From positions 64,001 to 128,000 of the IMG/VR virus record IMGVR_UViG_3300044213_000170: a stretch of 64,000 nucleotides of DNA; one strand, given 5' to 3'. Positions 13,748 through 22,295 of this stretch are shown piece by piece; the stretch's first letter is position 1; each line of letters begins with the position of its first letter. A program made the position numbers and the translations under genes. The notes beneath the pieces were generated by a model that was given only the letters and a program-made list of their open reading frames with translations, was not told the DNA's origin and made no database searches. This DNA comes from a virus.

Positions 13748-13854
13748 GTCATTTCCTTTTGCGTTAAAAATATTATTATACAACTATCATGGTCAGTTGT
13801 CAACCGAATTTGTATGTGTTGTTTTCGCACAACACATAAAGCGGGGTCTGTTCT

Positions 13855-14226
13855 TTACTTCTTCAATGATTCTATTGTAGTAAGCAATTCCCTCCATAGC
13901 TTACTAGGATTTTCACCCTTATTAAAATCCATCAATGCCATATAAGTTTCTTGACTACCTTCTGGAATCTTGAAATAGATATTAGCATAGGTGTAATCAA
14001 AATCATCGTCTGCATCATGGCTGTACCATGGGTGTTCTGACATCTCATCAAAAACATCTTCATAGTCTTCACGGTTACCGCCACCATTACGTGTATGAAC
14101 AACAATGAAACCATCTTCCATATAGACATTACGAAAACGACCAAAGTCAGCCTTCGTCTTGCCTAACAAGGACAATAGCTTGTCACTGTCAGGATTCATT
14201 CCAAAAACTAGATTATACAATGACAT
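13855..14226 (-). CDS. Hypothetical protein
   Basis: SD AAGGAG, 123 aa, TRNGGGNR motif. Confidence 0.8.
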   Translation of the reverse strand: MSLYNLVFGMNPDSDKLLSLLGKTKADFGRFRNVYMEDGFIVVHTRNGGGNREDYEDVFDEMSEHPWYSHDADDDFDYTYANIYFKIPEGSQETYMALMDFNKGENPSKLWRELLTTIESLKK

Positions 14227-14245
14227 ATTGTCTCCTTTGTAAATG

Positions 14246-14321
14246 TGGTAGGTCTTACTGGAATCGAACCGGTGGTCTTCACCGTGTCATGGTGACGATT
14301 TAGCCTCTAATCTAAAGACCT
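14246..14321 (-). tRNA. tRNA-Val(GAC)
   Basis: Cloverleaf, loop ATGACAC, CCA. Confidence 0.9.
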
Positions 14322-14325
14322 ATTG

Positions 14326-14472
14326 TTAATCTAATCCGTTACCACTAGTGGATAAGGACGACTTTTGTTGTCTACGCAAAGCCTTATTAGTTTTGCGATG
14401 TGAACCTGCTTTTCTCATTAATGCTAAGGCAACGAAGCGGTTACGTTGCTTGACAATGTTTACTCGCTTCAT
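14326..14472 (-). CDS. Small basic protein (MKRVNIVKQRNRFVALALMRKAGSHRKTNKALRRQQ...)
   Basis: Manual translation, 48 aa, SD AAGGA upstream. Confidence 0.55.
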   Translation of the reverse strand: MKRVNIVKQRNRFVALALMRKAGSHRKTNKALRRQQKSSLSTSGNGLD

Positions 14473-14491
14473 TATGTTTCCTTCATTAAAT

Positions 14492-14567
14492 TGGTTGCAG
14501 AGGAGGGAATCGAACCCCCGACCTCCAGGTTATGAGCCTGGCCAGATACCGCTTCTAACACTCTGCG
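14492..14567 (-). tRNA. tRNA-Met(CAT), initiator-like
   Basis: C1:A72 mismatch, CAT anticodon, CCA. Confidence 0.88.
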
Positions 14568-14587
14568 ATTCTATTTATAAAAATACT

Positions 14588-14664
14588 TGGAGGTCTGGGT
14601 AGGATTTTAACCTACGAATCAACTGGTTTGCAATCAGTGCCATTAAACACTCTGGTACCAGACC
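14588..14664 (-). tRNA. tRNA-Cys(GCA), atypical T-loop
   Basis: Loop TTGCAAA, U73, T-loop TTAAAAT. Confidence 0.8.
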
Positions 14665-14670
14665 ATAAAA

Positions 14671-14740
14671 CTATTATGAAACACACTAACCCGCTTGGCT
14701 ACCCTAAAAAGGACCGCGCTTCCAATGCGTTTTACAATAG
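14671..14740 (-). ncRNA. Stem-bracketed small RNA, unit D
   Basis: Stem CUAUUGUAAAACGCAUU/AGUGUGUUUCAUAAUAG. Confidence 0.5.
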
Positions 14741-15635
14741 TGCCTAAGGTTGAGATTACACCTTAAGCCAACAGCACCTCGAGCATTATAGTACGCCTTG
14801 CGAGCATACCTTCTCTCGACATCCACATAAGCCATTGCTGTACCTATGTCTGCTATCAGCATCGCCGTTTTAAGTCAGGCAGTAGACTTGACATCATATG
14901 CTATTCTACGCTTTCTATCCCGTTGAACTTGCGGTCCATTAAGCCTTGCGAGCTACGAAACTTCTTGCATAAACAGTTTTTACCTTGCGAGTTACGACTG
15001 ACTGAATTACCTTGCGGCTCCAGTATTAGATGCTTTTCACATATGACCGAGGCAGTCTTTGCATTTTAATCGTTAATTGGATTTGAACCAATAGTCGACT
15101 CCTTAACAGGGAGTTGCGTTACCATTACGCTATAACAACCTACTGCGATGAGCTGCCTCTGTTGCTACACAATCTTTTGGACTGCATAATACAACTCACC
15201 ACGTACCTTTTGTCTTGCGGACTACTCAGTCGTCTTTTGCGATCATTGTCGGGTCTCGGCTTTCGCGTACCTCCAACAACCACTCAAACTGCATACAAGC
15301 CCTTAGGTGCAACCCCTTGGACAAGTATACTACCCTTTCTCATACCAAATAACTGAATTGGTTTCGTAGTGAAGTCAGCACCACCTGTTACTTTCCATCT
15401 ACTCAAGTTCCCATCCGTCGAAACTTCAGGCTTGTAAGCAGACGTTCTTTCCACTACATTCAGCGTCTCTGTTACCACCACCGGTCTTATCAGTGATGGG
15501 CACCTCGCGGTGCTGAGCAGGCTTGTTTATCTGAACTATTACTAGCGGACTTATGTAGGCATACATCCTTTGGCTCCATCGCTGGAGTTATTCTTCGTAA
15601 ACGGCAAGCCGCCTACAGGACAATAAACTGCCCTA
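14740..15635 (-). ncRNA. Large structured ncRNA, probably GOLLD-type
   Basis: About 900 nt without a credible ORF inside a tRNA array; many CGCAAG (GNRA) hairpins; 3' hairpin containing GUAAUCUCA; family assigned from recall, not from a search. Confidence 0.65.
15068..15139 (-). tRNA. tRNA-Asn(GTT)-like cloverleaf embedded in the large ncRNA, no CCA
   Basis: GTTGTTA/TAACGAT acceptor, D-arm GCGT-AATGGTA-ACGC, ACTCC-CTGTTAA-GGAGT, T-loop TTCAAAT. Confidence 0.65.
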
Positions 15636-15845
15636 AAATCTTGTTTGTTCTGTGTCTTGCACTATTTGCCTAACTCAACAGCTTTACTCGAGTTTACTGT
15701 TTATTGCGTCGGTTACATAACGCTTGATCATGCCTCTGTGCTTGCAAGGCACAGAACAAACAAGATTTACAAAATTTACTTTTTAAAGAACAAACTTAGT
15801 TAATTTCTAACTAAGAATCTATTGTAGCAAATTATATAAAATTTG

Positions 15846-16022
15846 TCAACCTATGGGGCTTTTGACGATCCAGCCCAGTGCATGTAAGTTCAAGAAAGTA
15901 CTCCACATAGTCATTGCAAACAATCCGATTTTTACAACAATGTTTAACCAGCCCCTGGTGCTCCAGCGCACCAAGAAATAGGTAAAGATCATGCCCGACA
16001 CAGCGAAATACCAGTTAATCAT
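15846..16022 (-). CDS. Small membrane protein (MINWYFAVSGMIFTYFLVRW...)
   Basis: Manual translation, 58 aa, two hydrophobic segments, own sigma70-like promoter. Confidence 0.55.
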   Translation of the reverse strand: MINWYFAVSGMIFTYFLVRWSTRGWLNIVVKIGLFAMTMWSTFLNLHALGWIVKSPIG

Positions 16023-16094
16023 TTGAAAGCGCCTTTAGTTAATCAATACGAATATTATAGTCCCAAAACGATTTATAGTCAACTTGGTTTTATA

Positions 16095-16130
16095 TAGTAC
16101 TAAAGTACTAGTACTAGTACTTTAGTACTA
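16095..16130. repeat. Perfect 36-bp palindrome built from five AGTACT units
   Basis: TAGTACTAAAGTACTAGTACTAGTACTTTAGTACTA is its own reverse complement. Confidence 0.9.
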
Positions 16131-16135
16131 AATTT

Positions 16136-16210
16136 TGGCCCGGCGTACAGGAATCGAACCCATATTCGTGGTGTAGAAGACCACTGTATTATCCATTATA
16201 CTAACGCCGG
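16136..16210 (-). tRNA. tRNA-Arg(TCT)
   Basis: Cloverleaf, loop CTTCTAC, CCA. Confidence 0.92.
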
Positions 16211-16214
16211 ATTC

Positions 16215-16290
16215 TGGTGGTCGGAAGAGCACTCGAAGCTCCACATTCCTCCTTATGAGGGAGGCTCTCTTCCTCTTAAGATATCCGACC
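16215..16290 (-). tRNA. tRNA-CAT (Met or Ile2)
   Basis: Loop CTCATAA, CCA. Confidence 0.85.
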
Positions 16291-16472
16291 ATAATATTTG
16301 TTAAGCTGGCTCACTTTGAGCACCTTCGTCCTCCACGGACGCTAGTCTTATGCCATCCTTGTTGAATCAGTCTCCGCAGGGCCCATTGGCTACCTATCAA
16401 CAATTCATCGCGTCCCTTGCTCGTACCCGTCGGTAATTACTCAGGCTTTCGTTTAAACTACAGCTTAACAAA

Positions 16473-16580
16473 TATCATATAGAAACACACTGGTGTCCTT
16501 GCTCCTCCAGGATGACACTCCTGTCCAAATGAGGTTTATGACCGGCTTGTCGATCAGCAACAATGTGTTTTTATATGATA
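16473..16580 (-). ncRNA. Stem-bracketed small RNA, unit C
   Basis: Stem UAUCAUAUAAAAACACAUU/AGUGUGUUUCUAUAUGAUA. Confidence 0.55.
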
Positions 16581-16744
16581 TCGAAGATGGGAATCGAACC
16601 CACTAACTACCGGTGCGATGCCGGTTGTGCTACGCTCATTATACAACAAGTTTGTTCCGTTTGCAACCGGACTCGCTATATAACTTGGCACTAACTTTCC
16701 ATGTCGTTTTCTTCATTACCATATAGAATGTGTTTTTATATAAG

Positions 16745-16822
16745 TGGAGCACAGGGAGGGATTTGAACCCCCGGTTTTAGGGATTTGCAATCCCTTGCAT
16801 TGGGCCACTCTGCCACCTGTGC
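16745..16822 (-). tRNA. tRNA-Cys(GCA)
   Basis: Cloverleaf, U73, CCA. Confidence 0.93.
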
Positions 16823-16830
16823 ATATTTTA

Positions 16831-16906
16831 TGGTAGCGACGGTGGGACTCGAACCCACGATAAACTCCGTATGAAGGAGGTACATTAGCCGCTATGCTAA
16901 ATCACT
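16831..16906 (-). tRNA. tRNA-Met(CAT), elongator-like
   Basis: Loop TTCATAC, CCA. Confidence 0.85.
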
Positions 16907-16913
16907 ATATTTT

Positions 16914-16989
16914 TGGTGCCGCCTCCCGGGATCGAACCAGGTTCCATGGATTTTCAATCCACCGCAATGACCACATTTGCTAAAGCGGC
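16914..16989 (-). tRNA. tRNA-Phe(GAA)
   Basis: Cloverleaf, CCA. Confidence 0.93.
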
Positions 16990-17148
16990 AATGTAGATCG
17001 GGAGCCTAACTATCCTCCTGGGAGGACTCGCTAGATTGTCTCGAATAGGCAAGTTTATCTACCACGAATAGCCATCTGTTGTTGTCGCATAGCTAAGTCA
17101 CTATGCTAGGCTAGGTGGGACTCAAACCTATCGTCTATCCCTTAAACT

Positions 17149-17223
17149 TGGGGTATCGTACCAGGATCGAACTGGTGATAGCGGAATCACAACCCGCGGT
17201 TTTACCACTAAACTAACGACACC
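17149..17223 (-). tRNA. tRNA-His(GTG)
   Basis: G-1:C73, loop TTGTGAT, CCA. Confidence 0.93.
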
Positions 17224-17231
17224 ATATCAAT

Positions 17232-17308
17232 TGGCGCGACTGGAGAGATTCGAACTCCCGACACCTGACTTCGTAGGCCAGTACTCTATCCAACTGAGCT
17301 ACAGTCGC
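17232..17308 (-). tRNA. tRNA-Arg(ACG)
   Basis: Cloverleaf, CCA. Confidence 0.95.
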
Positions 17309-17314
17309 AAAAAA

Positions 17315-17391
17315 TGGCCCGCCCTGACGGACTCGAACCGCCAACAACTGATTTCGAAGACCAGGACTCTATCCAGTTGAGCTAAAGGCGG
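17315..17391 (-). tRNA. tRNA-Arg(TCG)
   Basis: Cloverleaf, loop CTTCGAA, CCA. Confidence 0.93.
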
Positions 17392-17400
17392 TCTAAATAT

Positions 17401-17475
17401 TGGCAGGGGGTTAGGGAATCGAACCCTATCACCTACGGTCAAAGCGTAGTATCTGCTCCAATCGATTTACCCCCA
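17401..17475 (-). tRNA. tRNA-Gln(TTG)
   Basis: Loop CTTTGAC, unpaired 1:72, CCA. Confidence 0.85.
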
Positions 17476-17559
17476 ACTGATCTGAAGTGTTGCTTATTCT
17501 ATACAATGTACAATATAAGCAACAGTTTGTTGGTCTCGCATAATGCGAATTATAAAACT

Positions 17560-17636
17560 TGGCGACCCCGGATGGATTTGAACCACCGACATTTGGTTTT
17601 GGAGACCAACGTTCTGCCAGACTGAACTACGGAGCC
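17560..17636 (-). tRNA. tRNA-Trp(CCA)
   Basis: Loop CTCCAAA, G73, D-stem GTTC/GAAC, CCA. Confidence 0.95.
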
Positions 17637-17643
17637 ATTAAAT

Positions 17644-17734
17644 TGGCGGAGGGCTAGAGAGTCGAACTCTAAAGGCGCTATTAACGCTCGGCGGTTTTCA
17701 AGACCGTTACCGTCACCAATCGGCTTGGCCCTCC
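17644..17734 (-). tRNA. tRNA-Ser(TGA)
   Basis: Long variable arm, loop CTTGAAA, CCA. Confidence 0.9.
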
Positions 17735-17860
17735 ATTTTGTGATTGTCGTTACGGGGTTTACCGTACCTGAAACTAGTCCCACCGCTTGCCAATCTTACT
17801 GAATGGACCTATAGACTTATGTGGCGCTTCCGTGCATTCTCATTACACTATGACAAAACT

Positions 17861-17938
17861 TGGCGCAGACCAAAGGACTCGAACCTTTGCGGGAATCTAG
17901 AATGCGGAGGACATGCCCCCTACCCCTCCATTATCTGC
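17861..17938 (-). ncRNA. tRNA-like RNA with acceptor stem, T-arm and CCA but remodelled D/anticodon half
   Basis: GCAGAT/GTCTGC-GCCA and GGTTCGAGTCC present; no canonical anticodon arm. Confidence 0.55.
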
Positions 17939-17945
17939 ATTAACT

Positions 17946-18021
17946 TGGTGCCGTCGCCATGAATCGAACACGGGACCTTCTCATTACAAGTGAGTTGCTC
18001 TACCAACTGAGCTACAACGGC
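17946..18021 (-). tRNA. tRNA-Thr(TGT)
   Basis: Cloverleaf, CCA. Confidence 0.95.
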
Positions 18022-18030
18022 TTTAATAAA

Positions 18031-18109
18031 TGGCGCACCGTACGAGATTCGAACTCGTGATCTCCGCCGTGACAGGGCGGCGCCTTAGGCCAGACTGAGC
18101 TAACGGTGC
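18031..18109 (-). tRNA. tRNA-Asp(GTC)
   Basis: Cloverleaf, CCA. Confidence 0.93.
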
Positions 18110-18114
18110 AAATT

Positions 18115-18190
18115 TGGCGCTCGGTAGGGGAATCGAACCCCTCTTCCCGCCGTGAAAGGGCGGTGTCCTAGACCGATAGACGAACCGAGC
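18115..18190 (-). tRNA. tRNA-Glu(TTC)
   Basis: Cloverleaf, CCA. Confidence 0.95.
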
Positions 18191-18272
18191 ATAATATCTT
18201 GAGACGGTGGAATCAAACCACTCTAGTCAGCATCTTCTCTGTGAAGATGCCCGTAATCATACTCCTCAAAAT

Positions 18273-18339
18273 ACTATATGTAAGTACACTACTCATCGGC
18301 TGTGCCATTTGACTGTTCGGCAATGTACTTGCATATAGT
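18273..18339 (-). ncRNA. Stem-bracketed small RNA, unit E
   Basis: Stem ACUAUAUGCAAGUACAUU/AGUGUACUUACAUAUAGU. Confidence 0.5.
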
Positions 18340-18455
18340 TTAGGGCTGTGGTCACTTTCGACTTAACATTTAACTAAGGCTTTCTTTATGCATTTATATC
18401 CTTAGCACCCTTCTTAAACATTATTATAAAAGAAAATACTTTTATTGTCAACTAT

Positions 18456-18541
18456 GTAGTGGATGCGGTTGGAGTCGAACTTACTCATCCGAAGAAACTG
18501 GGTTACAGCCAGCCACACCTCTCCAACTGTGTCGCACTTCC
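18456..18541 (-). pseudogene. Degenerate tRNA-Tyr(GTA), paralog of the adjacent gene
   Basis: Shares D-loop and variable-arm sequence with 18549-18634; broken T-stem, no CCA. Confidence 0.7.
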
Positions 18542-18548
18542 ATTAATT

Positions 18549-18634
18549 TGGTGGGTAAGGATGGATTCGAACCAACTCATCCGAAGGAAAGAGATTTACA
18601 GTCTCCCGCGCCTCTCCAACTGCGCCGCTTACCC
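18549..18634 (-). tRNA. tRNA-Tyr(GTA)
   Basis: Long variable arm, loop CTGTAAA, CCA. Confidence 0.92.
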
Positions 18635-18714
18635 ATAGTACATATTATATCGAAAAAAATAATTTTCGTCAACTAAAAAAAAAATAGCCGTAAACTTGTT
18701 AAGGCTATTTTGTT

Positions 18715-18789
18715 TGGTGGAGGATAGCGGGGTCGAACCGCTGACTGAAGCTTGCAAAGCTACCGTGTTCCCAACTATACCAATCCCCC
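18715..18789 (-). tRNA. tRNA-Ala(TGC)
   Basis: G3:U70, loop TTTGCAA, CCA. Confidence 0.93.
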
Positions 18790-18800
18790 CGATAACTTAT

Positions 18801-18974
18801 TTATTCTTCTTTGCCACGCTTGGTGGACTTTGCCAACCGATTATTAGTTTCAATCATCTTAGTATACATTTTGAAATACTCGCGACGATCGGTATTGTTT
18901 AAAATCCTTGCAGCACGGCGCTTAACCGCTTTAGGCATTTTTATTGCTTTAATGTCATATCCTCTACAGGTCAT
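18801..18974 (-). CDS. Small basic protein (MTCRGYDIKAIKMPKAVKRRAAR...)
   Basis: Manual translation, 57 aa. Confidence 0.55.
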   Translation of the reverse strand: MTCRGYDIKAIKMPKAVKRRAARILNNTDRREYFKMYTKMIETNNRLAKSTKRGKEE

Positions 18975-19049
18975 TTTATTTCTTTCAAAAATAATTAATT
19001 GTAGTTCAGTGTCCTCAGGTTTATCACTGATGTTTAGACGTTCAGAGCC

Positions 19050-19200
19050 GGACTTCCTAACGTCGAGTTCTTCCAGGACTTGTTACTCGGGCTACTAAGC
19101 CAGGTGCTCCTTTTCAGCTACCGCCCAAAATGGACAGTGGGGAGTTGAACCCCCTCCTGCTTTACACTAGTTCAACGTTCGAACATCTTACTAATGTGCT
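19050..19200 (-). ncRNA. Y-RNA (YrlA)-like RNA with a permuted tRNA-like domain
   Basis: T-arm, closed acceptor-like hairpin and D-like arm in that order, enclosed by a helix with one bulged pyrimidine. Confidence 0.5.
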
Positions 19201-19224
19201 TTTCACTTGCTAACACTACAAACT

Positions 19225-19300
19225 TGGTCTCCGTAGAAGGATTTGAACCTTCACCGCATGGTCCCAAACCATGAACGCTACCGGGTTACGCTATACGGAG
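19225..19300 (-). tRNA. tRNA-Pro(TGG)
   Basis: Cloverleaf, loop TTTGGGA, CCA. Confidence 0.93.
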
Positions 19301-19731
19301 TTTATACTTTTCAACATAATCGTCTATAATGGGCTGAACCTCATTAACATAACGACTATGAACATAACTATGATGTGTAGGACATAAAGGAACTAAATTC
19401 GCAGGTTCATTGTTATCATGGTTGTGATCGTGATGATGCACTGCTACAATTTTATCTTCCTCACACACTACACACTTTTTATCGTGGTGTAAGAAGCAAA
19501 TGGATTGATACTTTTCGCCCTTCCAATTACCGTTACTTTCACCACTTCTAAAATGCTTGTTTGAACAACTTCTACTGCAAGTACCTTTAGAGTTCTTGAA
19601 GTCCTTAATAGGGGTCGAACATACTATACATTCTTTTATATTAACAGGATTTAGATAACAATTATCCTCGTGCCGTTTAATATTTTGTGGTTCGTTTCTT
19701 TACCGCAGTATTGACAATTAATATGTTTCAT
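19286..19731 (-). pseudogene. HNH homing endonuclease with a 1-nt frameshift near 19690
   Basis: MKHINCQYCGKET... then, in another frame, NIKRHEDNCYLNP...CSRSCSN...CVVC...VHHHDHNHDNNEPANLVPLCPTHH; stop lies inside tRNA-Pro. Confidence 0.75.
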
Positions 19732-19800
19732 ACATTTATTTATCATTTAGCGCACAGAATGAGATATTCTCAAACAGACTGCTCTACACTCCGAAATCTC

Positions 19801-19876
19801 TGGTAGGACGTGACGGTCTCGAACCGCCGACATTCACGGTGTAAACGTGACGCTCTACCAACTGAGCTAACGTCCT
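19801..19876 (-). tRNA. tRNA-Val(TAC)
   Basis: Cloverleaf, CCA. Confidence 0.95.
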
Positions 19877-20029
19877 ATATCTTTTACTTATGTTTATTAT
19901 ACAGACACAAATAATAAATGTCAAATAATTTTTGCAATTTCCGGTGCAAAAACTGCACTTGCAAATGCTATATAAAATAATAATATCAACATACTCTAAT
20001 CCTCTAGACTATAGTATATTTAATATGTA

Positions 20030-20103
20030 TGGAGCGGAATATCAGAATCGAACTGATGACGTCTGCTTGGAAGGCAGTGGTTTTACCATTAAACTAATCC
20101 CGC
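20030..20103 (-). tRNA. tRNA-Gly(TCC)
   Basis: Cloverleaf, CCA. Confidence 0.95.
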
Positions 20104-20113
20104 ATTTTATTCT

Positions 20114-20190
20114 TGGTGCCTTGACCTGGATTCGAACCAGGGACCTACGCCTTATCAAGACGGTGCTACTACCAGCTGAGCTATCAAGGC
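20114..20190 (-). tRNA. tRNA-Ile(GAT)
   Basis: Cloverleaf, CCA. Confidence 0.93.
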
Positions 20191-20195
20191 CAATT

Positions 20196-20280
20196 TGGTG
20201 CCCCCCAAGAGACTCGAACTCTCACGCCTTGCGGCGCTGGAACCTAAATCCAGTGCGTCTACCAATTTCGCCAAAGGGGC
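20196..20280 (-). tRNA. tRNA-Leu(TAG)
   Basis: Long variable arm, CCA. Confidence 0.95.
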
Positions 20281-20289
20281 AATGATGTT

Positions 20290-20366
20290 TGGCTCCTCGA
20301 CGTGGGCTCGAACCACGGACATCTTGATTAACAGTCAAGCGCAACTACCAACTGTGCTATCGAGGA
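20290..20366 (-). tRNA. tRNA-Asn(GTT)
   Basis: Cloverleaf, CCA. Confidence 0.95.
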
Positions 20367-20415
20367 ATAAAATTCAACAGTATATATTATATATGCGATA
20401 TAAATTTGCTGTCAA

Positions 20416-20516
20416 GTATTTTAGAACACACTAGTGATTCGACCTAGTAAATGGGCCCGCCACAATAGTTTATCGTTCTATCGGCCGAGTTATTCGTCTA
20501 ATGTGCTCTAAAATAC
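20416..20516 (-). ncRNA. Stem-bracketed small RNA, unit F
   Basis: Stem GUAUUUUAGAGCACAUU/AGUGUGUUCUAAAAUAC. Confidence 0.5.
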
Positions 20517-20693
20517 CTTCTTATTAAGAAGATATGTTAGGGTTGTACCCTAACCAGTTATCTGTACTTTGCTGTTATCGCCAGCATTTCATCCAACTGT
20601 CCGCCCATTTGTCACATTTTATATGGCGTTGTGTGCTGGCTCGCGTTGCCTTATCACGCCGAAAATTAACAATAGTCAATTTTCTTTTTACAT

Positions 20694-20728
20694 AAACAAA
20701 AACCCCAGGGTGTTTAATCCTGGGGTCC
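20694..20728 (-). terminator. Intrinsic terminator of the putative attenuator
   Basis: GGACCCCAGG-AUUAAACAC-CCUGGGGUUUUUGUUU. Confidence 0.85.
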
Positions 20729-20751
20729 TTAGAGTGGTTGTAGTGTTGTTT

Positions 20752-20895
20752 TTACGCTACAATGTCCCCCTGGACCCCGATCTTAATCTCCGGTGTACGA
20801 TCATTATGATTTCCAGTAACCATACACCAAGAGGCAGACATCGCCTGTCTCTGTTTGGCATAAAAGTTTACTGATGATGATAAAATCGTGTTCAT
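20752..20895 (-). CDS. Putative attenuator leader peptide containing all 20 amino acids
   Basis: MNTILSSSVNFYAKQRQAMSASWCMVTGNHNDRTPEIKIGVQGDIVA*; contains GGGGUCC, complementary to the terminator 5' arm. Confidence 0.7.
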   Translation of the reverse strand: MNTILSSSVNFYAKQRQAMSASWCMVTGNHNDRTPEIKIGVQGDIVA

Positions 20896-20905
20896 GATGT
20901 TTTGT

Positions 20906-20934
20906 ATTATATGTTATTTATACTTTGTTGTCAA
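20906..20934 (-). promoter_or_regulatory. Consensus sigma70 promoter with an embedded TATAAATA
   Basis: TTGACA-N17-TATAAT ending 10 nt before the leader ATG. Confidence 0.85.
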
Positions 20935-20975
20935 GAAGTTTTGATTATGTTGTAAAAATACAACAAATTAAAATT

Positions 20976-21060
20976 TGGTGCGCCTAGCCGGAATCGAACC
21001 AGCATGACCGAAGTCGGGAGATTTTAAGTCTCCTGTGTCTACCTATTTCACCATAGGCGC
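20976..21060 (-). tRNA. tRNA-Leu(TAA)
   Basis: Long variable arm, CCA. Confidence 0.95.
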
Positions 21061-21129
21061 ATTTGTTTTGCAATAACTCTATTGTAGCAATATTTCTATT
21101 TATTGTCAACAATATTTTGTTGTTATTTT

Positions 21130-21221
21130 TGGTACCAGCGGAGGGGATCGAACCCTCTCAAGAACGCTAATCTGGCGCTAAAAGTCTTATAAGGACTCTC
21201 TGACTTCCAAGTCTCGCTGGT
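21130..21221 (-). tRNA. Atypical tRNA with TAT (Ile) anticodon and long variable arm
   Basis: ACCAGCG/CGCTGGT acceptor, tiny D-loop, loop CTTATAA, CCA. Confidence 0.75.
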
Positions 21222-21226
21222 AAAAC

Positions 21227-21303
<77 letters not shown>

Positions 21304-21320
21304 GATTTTTCTATTATATG

Positions 21321-22295
21321 TTATTCTGCATTTATTGTCAATGACAAATTATTTATTGCATCTATCTGCTGAAATCGTAAATCCATCTTAGTAAACATAG
21401 AAGTATCTTGTTCGATTAAAATGCATCGACGATTTTTGTTAGATGCAGCAATACCAGTGCTTCCACTGCCCGCAAAAGTATCCAACACCATATCACCAGG
21501 TTTGGATAACAATTCAATAAAGTACTCTAACACTTCAGTAGGCTTTTGTGTGGGATGAATTTTATCTTTGCCCAATCCGCCGCTATAGGTAATTGTGTTA
21601 GGAATAACACATTCGATCAATCCGTTTGATCTTTTGCGATCAGCCAACATCTTTTTACTATCAGCTAATGCCTTAGCAAACGCCTTGTCGATTGGTATAC
21701 CTTGAGAGATATATTTGTATACGATACTGCTGACTTTGTCTGCCGCCGCATAACGCTCAACCATAGATCCTTCAGTCGCATCTGCATTAAATGTTCTAGA
21801 GCCCTTGGGTTTAATGCCGAACAAAACGTATTCACAGCCACTTACTGGATTTACTCGACGATTGAATGGGACTGCTGCAGGTTTTTTCCAAGTCCATACA
21901 CGCTTAGACTCAAACCCAGCGTCGTTCATTGCGGTAATGAGATAACTTAAATATCTATCACTGATAAAAATTGCAAAACTTCCGCCCTTACGAAGTTTTG
22001 TAAACCACATCCTTGCCCAATCATTTAACTGTTGTTGGAATTCTTCATGACCAACATCGTCCCAGTCGTTATCAAATTCTTCACTGAAATTTTGATTATG
22101 GATTGTTGTTTTATTTTTGCCGGTTTCCTTGTCGAGCCAAATTGGATTTGCACCGTTTTTACTGATATTGTAAGGCGGATCTGTCAACAACAAATCAATC
22201 GAAGAATCGGGTATTTGATGTGCAATTGTCAAACAATCGCCGTTTAATCTAGTAATCATAAATGTGATTATACAATAATTTGGATTTATTGTCAA
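21321..22295 (-). CDS. DNA amino-methyltransferase (N6-A/N4-C, beta class)
   Basis: DPPY precedes HPTQKP and DTFAGSGSTG. Confidence 0.92.
   Translation of the reverse strand: MTINPNYCIITFMITRLNGDCLTIAHQIPDSSIDLLLTDPPYNISKNGANPIWLDKETGKNKTTIHNQNFSEEFDNDWDDVGHEEFQQQLNDWARMWFTKLRKGGSFAIFISDRYLSYLITAMNDAGFESKRVWTWKKPAAVPFNRRVNPVSGCEYVLFGIKPKGSRTFNADATEGSMVERYAAADKVSSIVYKYISQGIPIDKAFAKALADSKKMLADRKRSNGLIECVIPNTITYSGGLGKDKIHPTQKPTEVLEYFIELLSKPGDMVLDTFAGSGSTGIAASNKNRRCILIEQDTSMFTKMDLRFQQIDAINNLSLTINAE

Follow-up and report, generated by a model that had tools for sequence, protein, structure and literature searches.

A short transcription unit in a viral genome probably acts as a ribosome-mediated transcription attenuator, and its leader open reading frame (ORF), which encodes all 20 amino acids, would serve to probe the whole decoding apparatus. 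The unit was found in a stretch of 64,000 nucleotides, referred to here as the window, from an IMG/VR record of 145.4 kb; as this record is estimated to be 42% complete, the genome is probably that of a giant phage, an uncultured one from freshwater. The window carries 34 tRNA genes on the minus strand, together representing all 20 amino acids.

Current explanations of the near-complete tRNA sets of large phages invoke codon usage and evasion of the tRNA-cleaving defences of the host. A complete leader wired to a terminator in front of RNA genes would imply that the phage measures decoding capacity and responds to it, and this bears on why large phages carry such tRNA sets and when they use them. 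In the literature searched, we found neither a leader of this kind nor any control of a phage tRNA array described, and the design principle of a probe ORF for the whole translation apparatus was not found described for any attenuator. If the more far-reaching reading given below, a universal decoding sensor in a homeostatic loop, is true, this would be the first case of a regulator under selection to include all 20 amino acids, and viral tRNA genes would have their first known control. The element could also find use as a compact synthetic translation-stress sensor. A further outcome of the work is a pointer to a widespread and covarying non-coding RNA (ncRNA), which is proposed to be always under the control of the leader switch.

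The leader unit and its relatives

Both the perfect sigma-70 promoter and the almost leaderless 47-codon ORF of the initial annotation were recovered (Table 1), the peptide being exactly as quoted there. The leader ATG is located 10 nt past the -10 hexamer, leaving a 5' UTR of only about 3-4 nt, and no Shine-Dalgarno sequence was found before this ATG. Reading of the translation agreed that all 20 amino acids appear by codon 36, and that W, C, H, F, Y, L, P and E are used once each. The strong terminator noted shortly past the stop codon was found to start 23 nt after the TAA and to be composed of ACCCCAGG, a 9-nt loop, CCTGGGGT and then TTTTTGTTT, with a hairpin stability of about -13 kcal/mol as estimated by folding. 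The consensus terminator scan missed it because of the 9-nt loop, the loop limit of the scan being 8.

Table 1. Features of the leader unit and its surroundings in the window
Feature	Position	Strand	Basis or remark
Sigma-70-type promoter	20906..20934 (TTGACA 20934-20929, 17-nt spacer, TATAAT 20911-20906)	minus	12/12 match
Leader ORF, 47 codons and TAA, all 20 amino acids	20895-20752	minus	ORF list and sequence reading
Hairpin P0, mid-ORF, closed by CCAA:UUGG, holding the sole Trp codon	20827..20858	minus	MFE folds
Predicted antiterminator stem-loop P1-P3	20722..20778	minus	per-sequence folds and covariation
P1, GGGGUCC:GGACCCC	20778-20772 (codons 40-42) with 20728-20722	minus	exact complement
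P2, GGGG:CUCU	20770-20767 with 20734-20731	minus	per-sequence folds
P3, UGUAG:CUACA	20761-20757 with 20743-20739	minus	per-sequence folds
Stop codon, in apical loop of antiterminator	20754-20752	minus	per-sequence folds
Intrinsic terminator	20728-20694	minus	5' arm GGACCCCAGG (common to P1), 9-nt loop, 3' arm CCUGGGGU(UU), U tract UUUUUGUUU
Conserved structured ncRNA, directly behind terminator	20660 to about 20420	minus	motif and stem covariation in relatives
Next perfect sigma-70 promoter	20386..20415	minus	12/12; feeds tRNA-Asn (20366-20290) and the rest of the array behind it
Three tRNA genes, Met-CAT, Ile-TAT and Leu-TAA, upstream of leader unit	20976..21303	minus	tRNA scan

The earlier statement that the unit heads the tRNA array stood in part: tRNA-Asn and the array follow downstream, but tRNA-Met, tRNA-Ile and tRNA-Leu precede the unit. 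A same-strand tRNA within 500 nt upstream was detected in only 18 of 117 relatives, and the window is atypical in this respect. The gene predicted by ARAGORN as tRNA-Ile (21130-21221, minus strand; anticodon TAT at position 31) measures 92 nt, an unusual length for tRNA-Ile, and no Rfam tRNA match was obtained there at the gathering score. Further along, a GOLLD RNA (Rfam RF02032, 223 bits) is situated at 14747-15202 on the minus strand in the middle of the tRNA array, with a tRNA-Asn gene (15067-15140) nested within it. Seven perfect 12/12 sigma-70 promoters are interleaved with the tRNAs on the minus strand over about 9 kb (13775-22295); when promoter-like sites of any quality were counted, 30 were found versus 22.7 in shuffles.

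The first relatives were reached via a neighbouring 495-aa protein, near which the same unit was present with a diverged peptide. A 28-nt terminator pattern then matched 107 viral contigs, in all of which the whole unit was present, and a second scan using only a 17-nt motif inside the ORF matched at least 120 stretches, with many new ones among them. The set of leaders consists of 138 distinct peptides of 35-53 residues from uncultured viral contigs, with a median pairwise identity of 36% for the first 78; the sequences are related, and the counts of homologs given below are not counts of independent events. In 130 of 136 homologs, the 120 nt preceding the start codon contain a promoter with at least 10 of 12 consensus positions. 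In 38 homologs, the window included, the ATG follows the end of the -10 hexamer by 6-10 nt, as expected of a leaderless or near-leaderless mRNA.

When the window unit and two relatives were compared by blastn with 50,697 cultured phage records, no match was obtained. Among 185,579 species genomes, the sole match was a 6.2-kb contig (L195, JBBAKF010000113.1) binned with a Polynucleobacter sp. MAG. On this contig stands a complete unit whose 48-codon leader is at 20/20, with the ncRNA and tRNA-Tyr behind it. The contig probably derives from a phage and was grouped with the MAG in binning; Polynucleobacter is thereby weakly indicated as a possible host. Rfam models at gathering thresholds detected only tRNAs and GOLLD, the leader unit and the downstream ncRNA giving merely sub-threshold noise. 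On the 357-kb contig L022, a divergent unit near the end of the locus has kept the promoter, P1 (GGGGUUG:CAAAACCCC) and the terminator; its ORF has 30 codons with only 13 amino-acid types, and the unit is possibly a degenerate or differently tuned variant. In the leader of L186, the 3' switch region is apparently deleted, the ORF continuing into the downstream sequence and the terminator being absent.

Amino-acid content of the leader ORF

The complete content of the 47-codon ORF, stressed in the initial annotation, was correctly read, but in a lone ORF it is not rare enough to be significant: the phage amino-acid frequencies give a probability of about 1.5% for 20/20. Likewise, 1.46% of 2462 other ATG-ORFs of 35-53 codons in the related loci are complete. 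The significance of 20/20 comes from its retention throughout the family. All 20 amino acids were present in 122 of the 138 distinct leaders, 19 in another 14, and fewer in the remaining 2. When residues were shuffled within alignment columns, a procedure that preserves the conservation at each alignment position, the number of complete leaders was 24.7 on average and 39 at maximum over 1000 shuffles. For the first 78 leaders, 68 were complete, whereas 1.5, 3.5 and 9.9 would be expected under proteome, pooled family and uniform amino-acid frequencies, respectively. Among the new peptides found by the ORF motif only, 56 of 65 stood at 20/20, truncated peptides being included in this count.

For Cys, His, Phe and Tyr, the position shifts from leader to leader while the presence is nearly constant. 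In the first 78 leaders, Cys is spread over 30 alignment columns, none of which holds it in more than 13 sequences; it is absent from none of these leaders and occurs exactly once in 61. His, Tyr and Phe are distributed over 18, 22 and 21 columns, respectively. W, C and H are single in most leaders, and codon runs were not detected in any. The set of amino acids is already full upstream of P1 in 124 of 137 leaders, the usual sole Glu codon being located about 11 nt before P1. As judged from these alignments, the amino-acid completeness of the leader is under selection, and is kept up by compensation within each leader sequence. Such compensation is intelligible only for a translated ORF in which each amino-acid type matters, and we infer that the leader ORF is translated.

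With respect to codon choice, 42 of the 47 leader codons are matched to the phage's own tRNAs versus a fraction of 0.89 in its long ORFs, indicating no enrichment. A TnaC-like arrest peptide, with a conserved Trp followed by Pro, was considered and rejected, as the homologs differ in the spacing from Trp to Pro, which ranges from 11 residues to 15 or more.

Alternative helices and the RNAs behind the terminator

Without the 3' arm of the terminator, every homolog folds into a three-tier stem-loop consisting of P1, P2 and P3, the last of which has the stop codon within or beside its apical loop. For the 3' domain of 78 sequences and for the P0 region, no structure came out of RNAalifold on MAFFT alignments, in which rows were misaligned; pairing was counted on explicit structures and per-sequence folds. 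On structure-blind MAFFT alignments, P1 was 97.1% paired with 15 double-change cells versus 2.2 in shuffles. For P1, P2 and P3 together, 85% pairing was observed versus 20-49% with the partners slid, and 45 double-change cells versus 19.3 +/- 4.5, none of 500 shuffles being as high. Both the completeness and the complementarity of GGGGUCC to the terminator 5' arm GGACCCC, which had been noticed in the window and is exact there, persist in the relatives, the helix being kept with compensatory changes. A second pairing proposed at the same time, between CCAGGG and the 3' arm CCCUGG, is not conserved among the relatives and had to be abandoned; those G residues make the antiterminator helix P2.

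GGACCCC can pair either with GGGGUCC in the antiterminator or with CCUGGGGU in the terminator, and these two helices are mutually exclusive. The terminator stem varies among the relatives in a compensatory manner (CCCUAGG:CCUAGGG, CCCUGG:CCAGGG, CCCCUGG:CCAGGGG). In about 45 leaders the shared strand has U in place of the fourth C; about 40 of these have A as the P1 partner, and the partner in the terminator is A or a G.U wobble. By this comparison, the shared strand covaries with two alternative partners, the P1 strand and the terminator 3' arm. The antiterminator and terminator states differ little in energy, the median of E(anti)-E(term) being -3 kcal/mol, which favours the antiterminator; the energies of the two states in this window are -31.9 and -32.2.

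The stop codon is located between the two P1 strands in 137 of 137 leaders, 11-41 nt past the first G of P1, despite the variation in ORF length and phase. The GGGG of P1 is in reading phases 2, 0 and 1 in 52, 14 and 8 homologs, respectively, and the codon-position entropies of 1.20, 1.12 and 1.20 indicate that third positions are not relaxed. The three reading phases and the unrelaxed third positions argue that the constraint on the 3' end of the ORF acts on the RNA and not on the peptide C-terminus. Further upstream, the Trp codon within P0 is paired with an upstream strand in 132 of 136 per-sequence MFE folds (median z -2.1); we conjecture from these folds that P0 might be an RNA-polymerase pause hairpin or a ribosome-synchronising hairpin.

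The conserved ncRNA motif was identified in 115 of 126 relatives with enough downstream sequence. It follows directly behind the terminator in 31 loci, including the window, and after an ORF of roughly 55 codons in 84. This ORF, which belongs to no Pfam or PHROG family, is absent from the window; in the 84 relatives it has roughly 50-60 codons and a strong AAGGAG ribosome-binding site, examples being L097:9620-9790, L099:3108-3266 and L007:11305-11460. Between terminator and ncRNA, a promoter-like site was found in 6 of 115 loci and none in the other 109. Two stems of the ncRNA are 91.8% paired, with 96 double-change cells versus 26.4. Examples of the ncRNA are those of the window (Table 1), L097:9794-9943 and L009:5491-5640. 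Hairpin 1 has a 7-nt loop of AACGAGG or AACGCGA, the latter in the window, and hairpin 2 a loop of the type GCACU..AAACA / GCAC..AAAA. On the 3' side of hairpin 2 lie an invariant GGGCGG, a hairpin GGAUGAAA / GGCGAUAAC, and a long 'handle' stem with variable inserts. A pseudoknot between a 5' GUG-type strand and the GCAC loop is likely; the 5' strand is inconsistently aligned across the relatives. At 20416-20516 of the window (minus strand), the ncRNA 3' end has a T-arm-like hairpin enclosed by a long stem, GUAUUUUAGAGCACA... / ...UGUGUUCUAAAAUAC. No matching Rfam family was found for the ncRNA.

A same-strand tRNA is present within 1 kb downstream in 107 of 110 relatives, with a median of 13 tRNAs within 3 kb. 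Together with the completeness and the P1 helix kept in the relatives, this linkage supports the attenuator interpretation of the initial annotation. No promoter-like site was detected between terminator and first tRNA in 71 of 120 loci. As far as gene order indicates, the invariably gated target would be the conserved structured ncRNA, and not necessarily the tRNAs. It had been cautioned that internal sigma-70-like promoters also feed the array, and rightly so, since a 12/12 promoter at 20415 precedes tRNA-Asn in the window, a second respect in which the window is atypical. As tRNA-Asn has its own perfect promoter, the downstream tRNAs should be at least partly independent of the attenuator. 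Judged by this layout, the predicted attenuator certainly gates the ncRNA in this window and can only add to the transcription of the tRNAs.

Proposed mechanism and comparison with known systems

In the proposed mechanism, transcription would start from the unit's own strong promoter, and the near-leaderless AUG would receive a ribosome immediately. P1-P3 would be made up of the last part of the ORF and the next 30 nt, and their 3' strand, GGACCCC, doubles as the 5' arm of the terminator. A lead ribosome keeping pace with RNA polymerase through about 47 codons for all amino acids would cover the 5' strands of P1-P3 and stand at or near the stop codon. With the ribosome on P1-P3 as GGACCCC emerges, this strand would pair downstream, and the terminator would form, yielding a leader RNA of roughly 200 nt. 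If the ribosome lags, is stalled at any codon type or is never loaded, P1-P3 would fold first, and read-through would extend to the ncRNA and, in the majority of relatives, to the ORF of roughly 55 codons; for about three quarters of the relatives it would also include the tRNA genes. The logic would be that of classical attenuation minus the anti-antiterminator. The lag might be caused by shortage of any charged tRNA, by tRNA cleavage or by general damage to translation, so that the natural trigger would be starvation, host tRNA nucleases or general translation failure. The P1 5' strand is located at a median of 22 nt upstream of the stop codon. When the stop codon occupies the A site, this strand is at the rear edge of the ribosome footprint, and the blocking of P1 thus rests on steric and kinetic arguments. 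A ribosome stalled at the sole Glu codon might itself cover P1. A more far-reaching version, to which we give somewhat less than an even chance, is that the leader is a universal decoding sensor in a homeostatic loop. The ncRNA and the full tRNA set would then be made only when host decoding fails for any codon type, for instance under attack by host tRNA-cleaving defences or upon tRNA depletion in the course of infection, and would be turned off once the phage tRNAs restore leader translation.

No anti-antiterminator (the equivalent of the 1:2 hairpin) was identified, as the folds gave no upstream partner for GGGGUCC and P0 does not contain the P1 strand. An untranslated leader should therefore also read through, and 'no ribosome' would be indistinguishable from 'slow ribosome'. 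Failed initiation alone would then give read-through, which is in line with a different and, in our estimate, unlikely reading: that what the switch measures is ribosome loading and transcription-translation coupling in general, and not individual charged tRNAs. Such a gauge would be set off by shut-off of the host, by defences that target ribosomes or by the early/late timing of infection, and its terminator would mainly insulate the array from the strong leader promoter. The near-leaderless starts of 38 homologs may respond to the state of initiation, and internal promoters feed the array in this window and in 29 of 109 relatives, both as this reading would have it. A coupling gauge, however, needs no particular amino-acid content, yet all amino acids are kept, the rare ones mostly once and at shifting positions. 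Completeness with single and shifting rare residues is explained only if the decoding of each type matters.

That the unit is an ordinary small gene or a dual-function small RNA, with the peptide or the terminated RNA of roughly 200 nt as its product and P1-P3 as a stabilising 3' structure beside a normal terminator, appears still less probable. The unit is indeed independent, having its own promoter and terminator, its transcript is strongly structured as a whole (z -4.9), the peptide motifs A-x-W and NDRTPE are conserved, and terminated attenuator RNAs can work in trans according to one report (PMC6614838). For a gene product, however, it is difficult that the constraint on third codon positions equals that on first positions, that the peptide is nearly unconstrained in its N-terminal half, that the reading phase of the C-terminal part changes across P1, and that the peptide matches no family in Pfam or PHROGs. 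Moreover, the 20/20 completeness and the covariation of one strand with two partners would be left unexplained. A function as small gene or small RNA may exist in addition to attenuation. Finally, a chance ORF lying beside a terminator, its composition being without function, is practically untenable: 20/20 is expected at about 1.5% for one ORF and many small ORFs are contained in a 64-kb window, but the family, with 122 of 138 distinct homologs complete at a median identity of 36% (first 78), refutes it.

The preferred reading, a ribosome-mediated attenuator, invites comparison with the leaders of amino-acid operons. These leaders (trpL, hisL, pheL, leuL, and the multivalent thrL and ilv) carry runs of one to three cognate residues, form a 1:2 anti-antiterminator/pause hairpin, and are followed by biosynthetic genes. 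The phage unit resembles them in its short ORF, in the antiterminator and terminator with a shared strand and, as proposed here, in the decision by ribosome position and the dependence on coupling of transcription with translation. The affiliation with the attenuator class is consistent with an ORF of 35-53 codons open in 138 homologs, the shared strand, and the placement of the stop codon in all 137 leaders. In contrast to the operon leaders, the phage leader has each amino acid about once, gave no 1:2 hairpin in the folds, and would be directed to ncRNA and tRNAs. The Rfam His_leader model gave 17.2 bits for the unit (E 3.2) with a gathering score of 49, which is not a match. The T-box riboswitch is another attenuation system reporting on tRNA charging, and it binds one specific uncharged tRNA directly, without translation. 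The phage element would share with it this kind of report and the translation-related targets, but would read all tRNAs indirectly, through the ribosome. No match to the T-box models of Rfam was found in the window or 12 related loci, even at permissive E-values.

The rnTrpL/peTrpL system of Sinorhizobium is also based on a terminated leader transcript with a small ORF, but that leader is Trp-specific and resides on a bacterial chromosome (PMC6614838; PMC7968998). By analogy, a function of the phage leader in trans is a possibility.

The whiB7 (wblC) uORF of mycobacteria and other Actinobacteria belongs to an attenuator in which stalling leads to read-through, and is the closest working precedent; it is activated by knock-down of genes for 18 of the 20 amino acids, tRNAs or synthetases, and the amino acids encoded by the uORF set which shortages are sensed: removal of its Trp or His codons abolished just the corresponding response (PMC10274678). 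The whiB7 uORF of M. smegmatis encodes 19 of the 20 amino acids and that of M. tuberculosis lacks several; these uORFs are enriched in Ala and variable in content, and selection for completeness is not reported (PMC10274678). Common to whiB7 and the phage unit are a translated uORF, here predicted, a pair of antiterminator and terminator, and a broad sensing of translation stress, here proposed. The two differ in that whiB7 is the gene for a transcription factor in a cellular genome, whereas the phage element is viral and would gate RNAs: ncRNA and tRNAs lie downstream in viral contigs, and Ala makes up 5.9% of the pooled leader residues. Their sequences are dissimilar, and completeness itself is conserved in the phage leader. 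By analogy, the phage unit would work like whiB7 without being a member of that class.
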